In this document: positions 49,619 through 52,316 of the stretch, piece by piece
Position numbering within the stretch: the stretch's first letter is position 1
How the letters are laid out: every line of letters begins with the position of its first letter
Assembly: GCF_029227855.1 (NCBI RefSeq)
Contig: NZ_CP074356.1
Length of the DNA: 64,000 nt
Reading direction: 5' to 3' (one strand)
Source of the DNA: Escherichia coli
GTDB lineage: Bacteria; Pseudomonadota; Gammaproteobacteria; Enterobacterales; Enterobacteriaceae
Position numbers and translations under genes: made by a program
The notes under the pieces: generated by a model
What the model was told of the DNA's origin: nothing
Databases searched by the model: none
What the model saw: the letters and a program-made list of their open reading frames with translations, nothing else

Positions 49619-49905
49619 TTACCCTGAACTGACGATACAACAAAGGCGCAACGCTTTTGAGATAAAGGATCGATGCTTTCGCTGCTTTTACCCTCTACCA
49701 TTAGGCTAATTGCGACGAGAAAGGGACGACCTATGAATACTAACGTTTTTCGACTGCTCCTGCTGGGAAGCCTGTTCAGCCTTAGCGCCTGTGTGCAGCA
49801 AAGCGAAGTGCGACAGATGAAACACAGCGTCAGCACGCTGAACCAGGAGATGACGCAACTCATTGACATCCTCCACGCCCTGAAGGACGTGGATCCCTGC
49901 TACGT

Positions 49906-51114
49906 TCAGGCTGTCGCCTGAATCATTTCGGTGGGTTCCTGCTTCAACGGGCGGCCTGACTGCACCATCTCTCCACAGGCAAGAACGGCGTGCCCCGCCG
50001 CTAAAATGTTACGAGCGCCATTTACATCGGCGTTCGCTGTATATCCACATACCTGGCATCTGAATTGACTTTGTGACAGGCGATTTTCTTTCGCTGTATG
50101 ACCACAGCACGCGCAACGCTGACTTGTGTACGCTGGCGGAACAGCAAGCACCTGACCGCCACTCCAGAGCTGCTTGTACTCAAGCTGGCGGCGCATTTCA
50201 TACCAGCCCTGATCCAGTATCGAACGGTTTAAACCTGATTTTGCCCGGACATTGCGCCCCGGCTGGCTGACCGTACCCGCTGCTGACTTTGACATGTTAC
50301 TGACCTTCAAATCCTCAATGACTATCATTGCGTGGTTTTTGCTGACGGTCGTTGTGACTTTATGAAGGTAGTCCCTGCGGATATTTGCGATACAGGAATG
50401 CAGTCGCTGTATTTTGCGTTTCTGCTTCTGCCAGTTGTTGCTGAATTTGACCTTGCGGCTTAACTGTCGCTGAAGTCTCGCCAGCTTCTTCTGGTTTTTC
50501 TGAAAACTGTTTACAGGCTCAAAGACTGTGCCATCTGACAGCGTGGCGAGTTTAGCCACGCCAGCATCCAGCCCGACCATTGATGCTGAAGGGTGAACCG
50601 GAGTTGATACTTCACTTTCTGTCTGAATACTGATGTACCACTTACCGCAGGACTGGCAGACCGTGACATTTTTCACAACACCCGTGACCTGACGGCTATT
50701 CCGGTAGCGCATCCAGCCAAGTTTCGGCAGAAAAATACGGCTGTTTTCCTGATCGAGCTTAACGCCCTGCGGGTAGCGGAATGCATCATTCTGTCCCCGC
50801 TTTTTGAATCGGGGAAAAGCAGCCCGCTTCCGGAAGAAGTTTTTGTAAACCCGCTCAAGGTCTTTCAGTGACTGTTGCAATGGCTGTGAGGGCGAATCTT
50901 TAAGCCATTGCGTTTCAGTGGCGTTTTTCCACTCAACCAGCCAGGAAGCCATTTTCCCGTAAGGGATGTATTTATTACCGGCCTCATGATTCTCATTCTG
51001 AAGCGCCAGAGCACGATTGAAAACGAAACGACATGCGCCTGCGAAGCGCCTCATTTCACGCTCCTGTTGACCACCGGGTCTTAACTGGAATTTAAATGCC
51101 TGTAGTCGTTTCAC
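49906..51114 (-). CDS. tnpB: TnpB (OrfB) of IS605-family element; RuvC-like RNA-guided nuclease family
   Basis: 402-aa intact ORF, N-terminus [17 protein letters not shown]...; C-terminal zinc-finger CxxC...CxxC (CACCGH...CQVCGY); resembles K-12 IS609 InsQ as I recall it. Confidence 0.88.
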
Positions 51115-51121
51115 AGGCCAA

Positions 51122-51600
51122 ATGATACTTTGGTCTGTGAAAAAAGAAACCGATATCCGGCGTGGAAGGCATTGTGTTTTCCTGATGCATGTTCACCTGG
51201 TCTTTGTCCCAAATACCGACGCCAGATTTTTGACCATGACGCGACAGAAAAACCACGCACTTACTTTTCAGATGTATGTGCTGATTTTGAAGCTGAACTG
51301 GTTGAAATGGATGGCGAACCAGATCACGTCCATTTGTTAATTAACTATCCTCCCAAACTGGCGATATCCAGTCTGGTAAACAGCCTCAAAGGCGTATCGG
51401 GTAGGTGACTGCGACGAGATCGACCAGATATTGCAGTCAGGTATTACTACAAAGGCGTTTTGTGGAGTCCTGGCTATTTTGCCAGTAGCTGCGGAGGTGC
51501 GCCAATATCCGTCATCCGCCAATACATTGAACAACAGCAAACACCTGGTCAGGTGGAAAACCGCGCCTTATATCCCCGCCCTGAAGGACGGGGTTTTACG
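51122..51600 (+). pseudogene. tnpA: IS200/IS605-family Y1 transposase TnpA, frameshifted
   Basis: HVHLVFVP in one frame continues as KYRRQIF...DHVHLLINYPPK...LKG in the -1 frame (A-run at about 51211); C-terminal ...WSPGYFASSCGGAPISVIRQYIEQQ lies in a third frame. Confidence 0.75.
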
Positions 51601-52316
51601 GCGCACCGGATAAAGAAACAGTCAAAATCACTCAGCAAAACAGGCTGAATGCAAAATCCAGCAGTGGGGTTTACCTTCTGCCTGGAGCGAAAACACCAGC
51701 AAGACTGGAAAGCCAGATCGGTACTTTACGTATGTCGCTGGTGAATATTACGCCTGATACAGATGGCACCACCCTGACGCTACGTATTCAGGGCGAGTCG
51801 AATGATCCCTTGCCCGCATTCAGCGGAACTGTTGAATATGGGCAAATTCAGGGAACAATAGACAACTTTCAGGAAATCAATGTGCAGAATCAATTGATTA
51901 ACGCCCCTGCCAGCGTCCTCGCCCCCAGCGATGTTGATATTCCGTTACAGTTAAAGGGTATTTCTGTGGATCAGTTAGGCTTTGTACGTATCCACGACAT
52001 TCAACCTGTTATGCAGTAAACGTTTCGCGGGGCGTTTTGTGCGTCCCGCAACATCTTTCCCCGTCATTTTGTTACTCTGCTTACATCACCCAGATTGATA
52101 GTAAAAGTTTGCAACAAGGGTGAAAGTCAGTACAATCCCCGCCCGAATGTGTGTAAACGTGAACGCAATCGATTACGTAAATGATAGAACTGTGAAACGA
52201 AACATATTTTTGTGAGCAATGATTTTTATAATAGGCTCCTCTGTATACGAAATATTTAGAAACGCAATTTGCGCCTTTTTCACTCCCGCAAGGGATTTTC
52301 AAACAGTGGCATACAT

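Follow-up and report, generated by a model that had tools for sequence, protein, structure and literature searches.

An IS609 copy in yajI of Escherichia coli with an intact tnpB and a predicted omega-RNA scaffold

The IS609 insertion in yajI

The window analyzed here is a stretch of 64,000 nt from Escherichia coli (contig NZ_CP074356.1, assembly GCF_029227855.1) that carries, in the E. coli ribD-nrdR-yajI-tsx neighborhood, a copy of the insertion sequence IS609 within the gene yajI. This copy encodes TnpB, a candidate RNA-guided nuclease, next to a pseudogene of the transposase gene tnpA. The start codon of yajI lies at 49733. Codons 1–43 run to 49861, as described in the first-pass annotation of this DNA, and the first base of codon 44 is 49862, after which unrelated sequence follows. 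The 5' fragment (49733..49862, plus strand), which encodes a lipoprotein signal peptide, matches an uninterrupted yajI up to 49862, and the 3' fragment (51610..52019, plus strand) resumes with the last two bases of codon 44 and reads through to the stop codon. In strains that share the insertion, the Prokaryotic Genome Annotation Pipeline (PGAP) calls the 5' piece an incomplete DUF3251/SadB-YajI lipoprotein and the 3' piece an incomplete DUF3251 protein with its N-terminus missing.

The uninterrupted yajI of strain G12 (locus L002, from position 1467) served as the empty-site reference. It reads ...GAGATGACGCAACTCA|ATAAAGAAAC... across the site, the left part ending in CAACTCA. The sequence of this empty allele limits the insert to 49863..51609 (1,747 bp) without target duplication, and no target base has been lost. 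Delimited by this allele and by alignment to six other copies, the element has its sense on the minus strand, with its left end at 51609 and its right end at 49863; homology with other IS609 copies and with relatives in other genera ends exactly at 49863. In element orientation (minus strand), the left junction reads ...GTTTCTTTAT | CCGGTGCGCCGTAAAACCCCGTCCTTCAGGGCGGGG... and the right junction ...TCCACGTCCTTCAGGGCGTGGAGGATGTCAA | TGAGTTGCGTCATCTCC.... The first-pass annotation had placed the element at 49866..51608: the insertion in yajI stands, while the two ends were off by 3 and 1 nt. Its proposal that insertion had occurred without target duplication is borne out by the comparison with the uninterrupted gene, in which the junction holds 0 duplicated bases.

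Prevalence was assessed in 5,426 complete E. coli genomes using two probes of 200 nt, one across the left and one across the right junction, with a coverage of at least 80% counted as a match. Each yajI::IS609 junction probe was matched in 340 of these genomes; yajI::IS609 is a real, recurrent allele, neither a chance pattern nor an assembly error. Strain JNEC-KY178 is 100% identical over 49700–51800. In sequence type (ST) 2747, which has the same insertion, PGAP annotates a yajI fragment, insQ ('RNA-guided endonuclease InsQ/TnpB family protein'), a tnpA flagged as a pseudogene ('IS609 family transposase') and a second yajI fragment. At least 80% of the region is matched in 4,306 of the 5,426 genomes, which reflects an IS609 copy somewhere in the genome, and many of the sampled IS609 matches lie at a recurrent site, ydcL-ydcO. 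The element, its insertion in yajI and the RNA-guided endonuclease label are already known from catalogs and annotations. The first-pass annotation was silent on this prior annotation and on the hundreds of public genomes with the insertion, as it was on the tnpA pseudogene.

In the RefSeq record of K-12 MG1655, 'insertion sequence:IS609' spans 1503161..1504908 and holds insQ ('putative RNA-guided DNA endonuclease InsQ') together with the tnpA pseudogene yncK. The window insert has 98.1% nucleotide identity to this element from end to end. The termini are alike (CCGGTGCGCC...GGAGGATGTCAA), the first and last 30 nt agreeing in all but one base, and PGAP names the tnpA of sister copies 'IS609 family transposase'. 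Judged by identity and ends, the insert is IS609 of the IS200/IS605 family, in line with the earlier call of an IS609-like, IS605-family element; the safe name is 'IS609 as annotated in K-12'. One TnpB in Table S1 of PMC12781874 has a listed identity of 94.3% to ISfinder IS609 and shares only 85% of its residues with the window TnpB. By this indirect bound, the ISfinder IS609 TnpB may differ from the window TnpB in roughly 9–20% of the protein (via PMC12781874).

Both ends carry an imperfect subterminal hairpin on one strand, the minus strand, and there are no terminal inverted repeats. The left-end hairpin (51574..51593) has the form CCCCGTCC-TTCA-GGGCGGGG, with a T-G wobble on the element top strand. 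The right-end hairpin (49872..49893) has the form UCCACGUCC-UUCA-GGGCGUGGA and is followed by GGATGTCAA up to the cleavage point. The core CGTCCTTCAGGGCG is common to the two, and both contain a G-T wobble. As single-stranded DNA, the right-end hairpin is a putative recognition hairpin for TnpA; as RNA, it would be the last stem of the omega-RNA considered below. Directly 5' of the left end lies the tetranucleotide TTAT (51610..51613, minus strand), the target of insertion and the predicted transposon-associated motif (TAM). TTAT precedes the left end at all six E. coli sites compared (yajI, ydcL-ydcO, an O157 TetR gene, yfaV-yfaY, hslO-yhgE in ST131, and one plasmid). Across 13 elements including those of other genera, the tetranucleotide is TTAT in 10 and TTAC in 3.

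This layout resembles that of IS608 from Helicobacter pylori in the Y1 HUH type of TnpA, in the imperfect subterminal hairpins on one strand, in insertion 3' of a fixed tetranucleotide and in the lack of both target duplication and terminal inverted repeats. IS608, however, has TTAC as its target where the window IS609 has TTAT. Moreover, the genes of the window IS609 are divergent, an orientation that is IS605-like and unlike that of IS608, and its tnpA is inactive.

Within the window, the end motifs are confined to 49863 and 51577–51592, which rules out a second IS609 or a mini-element elsewhere in it. In an IS609 copy of the ST131 strain 2822, at hslO-yhgE (locus L007), most of tnpA has been lost to an internal deletion, and the alignment ends at element position 1457; TTTAT still flanks its left end, and its insQ is annotated with 404 aa.

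The intact tnpB and the decayed tnpA

The gene tnpB (insQ; 49906..51114, minus strand) is intact, with a GTG start and 402 codons, the full-length protein that the first-pass annotation had reported. Its product matches the Pfam domains HTH_OrfB_IS605, OrfB_IS605 and Cas12f1-like_TNB with E-values from 1e-14 to 1e-34, in agreement with the WED/REC/RuvC/TNB architecture of TnpB nucleases, and reaches 383.8 bits against the NCBIfam model guided_TnpB (cut-off 100). The structures of ISDra2 TnpB (PDB 8bf8, 8exa and 8h1j) match residues 3–376 with an E-value of 7e-54. A disrupted RuvC triad had been named earlier as an argument against an active module. The triad is intact, with D183, E267 and D363 aligned to D191, E278 and D361 of ISDra2, and a CxxC..CxxC zinc finger is present as well (C334, C337, C353 and C356).

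The ratio of nonsynonymous to synonymous substitution (dN/dS) of tnpB is 0.05–0.28 relative to other copies and genera, and 0.16–0.28 among E. coli copies. By these sequence comparisons, tnpB is under purifying selection. Over the final 67 codons, synonymous sites diverge about half as much as in the remaining gene, a further sign of a second constraint at the 3' end.

The window protein resembles the ISDra2 TnpB of Deinococcus radiodurans in its homology over the full length, in the aligned D-E-D residues and in the zinc finger. It differs by an insertion of ∼15 aa after the RuvC glutamate. The elements differ, too, in that TTAT is the predicted TAM here where ISDra2 has TTGAT, and in that tnpA and tnpB of the window element are divergent. 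For ISDra2 it is established that the scaffold overlaps the 3' end of tnpB and the right end, that the guide derives from the flank and that the TAM equals the transposon target. Set beside ISDra2 by its layout, the window IS609 would share these three properties.

On the other side of the element, tnpA (51122..51552, plus strand), which coded for a Y1/HUH transposase, is a pseudogene. It was delimited by alignment to the intact 143-aa copy of O157 (L004, 3760–4191), whose product (WP_000604943.1) scores 145.7 bits against the NCBIfam model transpos_IS200 (cut-off 55). The start codons of the divergent tnpA and tnpB are 7 bp apart. A 1-bp deletion near 51202 shifts the frame just past the HVHLVFV (HUH) motif, a TTA>TGA nonsense change at 51406–51408 is common to the window copy and the K-12-type copy, and the natural stop codon is changed from TAG to CAG (51550–51552). 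The 1-bp deletion is found in the window lineage only and is not in the yajI copy of ST2747. The TGA codon occurs in both the yajI and the ydcL-ydcO copies, either through mobilization in trans from a tnpA-dead element or through gene conversion between copies. Because tnpA is a pseudogene, the window IS609 is, as judged from its sequence, unable to mobilize itself, and its excision or movement needs intact TnpA from another IS609 copy. The non-stop TTA allele is present in at least one copy in 2,330 of the 4,991 E. coli records that have the segment, and mobilization of the window copy in trans is conceivable in some strains.

The K-12 MG1655 element shares with the window copy its termini, the divergent tnpA and tnpB, TTAT at the left end, the tnpA TGA nonsense codon and a TnpB of 402 aa (insQ b1432; yncK b4578), the 1-bp deletion in tnpA being extra in the window copy. 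In every copy inspected tnpB is intact (402 aa), and in several of them tnpA is dead. Across E. coli, tnpB and the scaffold are widely retained intact while tnpA decays, and tnpA is often a pseudogene in the copies inspected. Open-literature searches for InsQ in combination with small RNA or TnpB found no study of the native function of E. coli InsQ.

A covarying RNA structure at the 3' end of tnpB

An omega-RNA scaffold had been proposed in the first-pass annotation at roughly 49866..50060 on the minus strand. Folding of 34 relatives with RNAalifold yields in this region a predicted scaffold of 147 nt (49863..50009, minus strand) that overlaps the 3' end of tnpB and the right end of the element. 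A search for homologous proteins had returned only near-identical E. coli sequences and no diversity. The relatives were instead taken from 44 loci found in a scan of genome contigs with one genome per species, and 34 of them were aligned over the terminal 220 nt at the right end. Represented are Escherichia, Citrobacter, Serratia, Pantoea, Xenorhabdus, Photorhabdus, Morganella, Klebsiella, Methylococcaceae, Janthinobacterium, Conchiformibius and a Zetaproteobacterium, with TnpB identities between about 50% and 94%. The terminus GGAGGATGTCAA does not vary among relatives down to the lower of these values. In nearly all relatives homology stops at this terminus and unrelated flanking sequence lies beyond it, as would be expected of a guide templated by the DNA adjoining the element.

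The predicted scaffold is closed by a long-range helix between ACAUUUU (50009–50003) and AGGAUGU (49872–49866). Inside this closing pair lie helices at 50000–49986, 49979–49938 (containing 49971–49949), 49922–49905 and 49893–49872. Standard base pairs make up 93.6% of the cells, compared with 43–49% when the partners are slid by 1–3 columns. Compensatory change is seen in 22 of the 40 pairs (6–14 in the slid controls) and in 84 cells (7–24), and the covariation score is 0.282 as against at most 0.082; none of 500 shuffles reaches any of the observed values. The right-end hairpin (helix 8) has compensatory change in six of its seven pairs. Likewise, the three helices contained entirely in the tnpB open reading frame (ORF; 50000–49938) are 97.2% paired, 10 of their 16 pairs being compensatory. 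One pair within the ORF joins two synonymous third positions (GCG...CAC versus GCA...CAU) and occurs 21 times as A-U and 12 times as G-C, with 0 single-sided changes. The conservation of the right-end hairpin is explicable by TnpA binding single-stranded DNA, whereas that of the three helices within the ORF is not. Since G-U pairs fill 220 cells, pairing drops to 78.7% when the opposite strand is folded; the structure belongs to the tnpB-sense strand.

One element of the model was set by hand: the RNAalifold pairing 216–218/229–231 was replaced by a TTCAGGC/GCCTGAA hairpin across the stop codon. It is conserved to a lesser degree (81.7% paired), since the Photorhabdus/Klebsiella group has another sequence at this place. 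Taken as a comparative result, the conserved, covarying structure from 50009 to 49863 (minus strand) supports an omega-RNA scaffold where the first-pass annotation had looked for one.

The Photorhabdus spp. and Klebsiella pneumoniae ATCC 13883 loci (L020–L026, L034, L035 and L046) stand out in that their TnpB is only ∼62% identical to the window protein overall, yet the final ∼176 nt of tnpB have 84–88% nucleotide identity. Beyond this stretch lies a right-end hairpin that is longer and different, and the terminus GGAGGATGTCAA is kept. In sequence, this looks like either exchange of a 3' module comprising the C-terminus and the RNA scaffold, or unusually strong constraint.

A 198-bp mini-IS609 that resembles a palindrome-associated transposable element (PATE) lies on the E. 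coli plasmid pL9-3 (NZ_CP142047.1; L006, 2501–2698). It consists of 55 nt of the left end fused directly to the terminal 143 nt on the right-end side (window 50005..49863), which is almost exactly the scaffold, and is flanked by TTAT on its 5' side and by unrelated sequence on its 3' side. At least 80% of it is covered in 43 plasmid records. The mini-IS609 could provide a guide RNA for chromosomal TnpB.

The first-pass annotation had also suggested a covariance-model search for omega-RNA, and here the Rfam matches all stayed below threshold. The best of them, on the minus strand within 49850–50033, were HgcC (21.3 against a threshold of 50 bits), sot0042 (17 against 88) and RAGATH-18 (25.4 against 44.9). 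No curated Rfam family covers the scaffold of the IS609 clade, and these matches are leads rather than evidence of membership. HgcC RNAs and the haloarchaeal sotRNAs are tied to tnpB and have a terminal hairpin with a UUCA loop (PMC4615843). The window hairpin CGUCC-UUCA-GGGCG aligns with the terminal hairpin in each of the two Rfam models, which describe RNAs at the 3' ends of IS1341-type tnpB genes (PMC4615843); the likeness extends to this terminal module only, with scores far under the thresholds, and so does not amount to family membership. Sense-overlapping transcripts at the 3' ends of tnpB genes have been seen by RNA-seq in E. coli K-12 (PMC4615843), and we infer that the K-12 tnpB meant there is insQ of IS609. 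RNAs derived from RAGATH-18 have been shown experimentally to be guide RNAs of IS607 TnpBs (PMC11061315). The window motif CCUGUGGAG...GUUGAAGCAGGAA (49979..49936, minus strand) matches both ends of the RAGATH-18 consensus. Its central part is shorter, however, the score is below threshold, and the transposase here is a Y1 TnpA as opposed to the serine recombinase of IS607. In sequence, the match hints at a common core of IS605-type and IS607-type omega-RNAs.

The disrupted yajI adjoins this region. Its shortened reading frame (49733–49921, plus strand) runs into the element and would give a signal-peptide product of 62 aa (MNTNVF...MTQL plus 19 residues), and transcription from the yajI promoter would cross the right end and the omega-RNA region in antisense.

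Predicted guide and proposed role of the TnpB module

The guide template is predicted to adjoin the right end on its 3' side (tnpB-sense strand), at 49847..49862 (minus strand), with the sequence 5'-TGAGTTGCGTCATCTC-3'. The guide of ISDra2 has a length of ∼16 nt, and this length of 16 nt was taken over for the window element. In every other copy the guide position holds unrelated sequence: for the K-12 IS609 at ydcL-ydcO, for instance, the predicted guide is TATCGGTTTCTGTCAG..., while for the window copy at yajI it is TGAGTTGCGTCATCTC.... The minus strand of uninterrupted yajI reads GTTTCTTTAT|TGAGTTGCGTCATCTC, that is, TTAT and then the guide sequence, and the only match to the predicted guide is the empty site of this element. 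This agrees with the earlier suggestion that a guide would be templated by the yajI flank or represent the donor joint. TTAT has been used as the TAM for an IS609-labeled TnpB that is 85% identical to the window TnpB (PMC12781874, Table S2).

Altogether, we consider it very likely that this IS609 is a 'peel-and-paste' single-strand transposon that inserted 3' of TTAT in yajI and retains an intact tnpB and a structured 3' RNA segment, the omega-RNA/TnpB function being assigned by analogy. The model for that function is the behavior reportedly established for the ISDra2 and Geobacillus TnpB in work by Karvelis (2021), Altae-Tran (2021), Meers (2023) and Nety (2023). By the same logic, a tnpB-sense transcript through the right end would yield the scaffold and a guide of ∼16–20 nt (TGAGTTGCGTCATCTC...) from the adjoining yajI DNA. 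TnpB loaded with this omega-RNA would recognize TTAT followed by the guide sequence (target TTAT+TGAGTTGCGTCATCTCCTGG), as present in an uninterrupted yajI allele or in the donor joint left after excision. RuvC cleavage of such an empty site might then be followed by recombinational repair that restores the insertion, so that the element would be retained. The TAM (51610–51613) and the protospacer (49847–49862) are 1.7 kb apart with the element between them, and the chromosome is consequently not a self-target. With tnpA dead, the nuclease would have a substrate in two cases only: supply of TnpA in trans, or entry of empty-site DNA into the cell.

Several points weigh against an active module. 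None of the Rfam families attained its gathering score, and the promoter scan gave 2 sites versus 2.1 expected in shuffled sequence, an absence of excess at chance level that makes the scan uninformative on omega-RNA transcription. The consensus structure came from the same alignment that was used for the pair counts, and the paired fraction is somewhat inflated for that reason. The 85%-identical, IS609-labeled TnpB was purified, yet it is not the enzyme reported to be strongly active (PMC12781874). Of the 402 residues of the window TnpB, 9 are different in K-12 InsQ, and these differences may matter. RNA expression and nuclease activity of the window copy are drawn from analogy with other elements, and its nuclease may be idle, the donor joint arising only with TnpA in trans.

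It is conceivable, though unlikely, that the locus is an inert relic, a decaying IS609 in which tnpB is still open because too little time has passed and TnpB and omega-RNA are neither made nor active. The two or three inactivating lesions already present in tnpA are in its favor, as are the lack of a promoter signal above chance and the GTG start of tnpB where relatives in other genera have ATG. On the other hand, all copies examined have an intact tnpB of 402 codons despite a dead tnpA in several, its dN/dS among E. coli copies is 0.16–0.28, and both the RNA structure and the catalytic residues are fully preserved. The 3' sense-overlapping transcript of K-12 tnpB (PMC4615843), presumably from the 98%-identical IS609 copy, likewise speaks against a silent remnant.

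Much less probable is that TnpB and omega-RNA have been domesticated into a TldR-like regulator, an RNA-guided DNA-binding repressor in place of a nuclease serving the transposon. Retention of tnpB without tnpA at fixed sites would fit, with IS609 in about 4,300 of the 5,426 genomes and ydcL-ydcO recurrent, and such a fixed-site pattern is reportedly shown by exapted TnpB homologues (Wiegand et al. 2024). TldRs, however, are without the RuvC triad and the C-terminal zinc-finger/TNB region, both of which are intact here; the gene is still bracketed by genuine IS ends, with a guide taken from the flank, and that guide matches nothing except the empty site of the element itself. With the catalytic triad and the TNB domain intact and both IS ends present, membership in the TldRs was rejected.

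An assembly or chimeric artifact joining yajI to a distant IS609 copy, a possibility raised in the first-pass annotation, is effectively refuted, since each junction is present in exactly 340 complete genomes from many sources and comparison with the empty allele shows an insertion exact to the base; nothing was found in favor of such an artifact.

Beyond retention of the transposon by TnpB and its omega-RNA, a rather unlikely extension is that a tnpA-dead IS609 keeps the pair as an allele guard that works independently of transposition, and that plasmids with a mini-IS609 borrow chromosomal TnpB against competing plasmids without the mini-element. If such a guard operates, it would cut incoming or recombinant DNA that holds TTAT and the guide sequence, and would thereby bias recombination toward the upkeep of the insertion and its spread among E. 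coli lineages.

What is gained for the window copy are base-exact ends, the TTAT target and a predicted guide, and, for the IS609 clade, an omega-RNA scaffold structure supported by covariation that falls outside any Rfam family. The ends, the TAM, the guide and the scaffold model make the native function of TnpB in E. coli easy to test.

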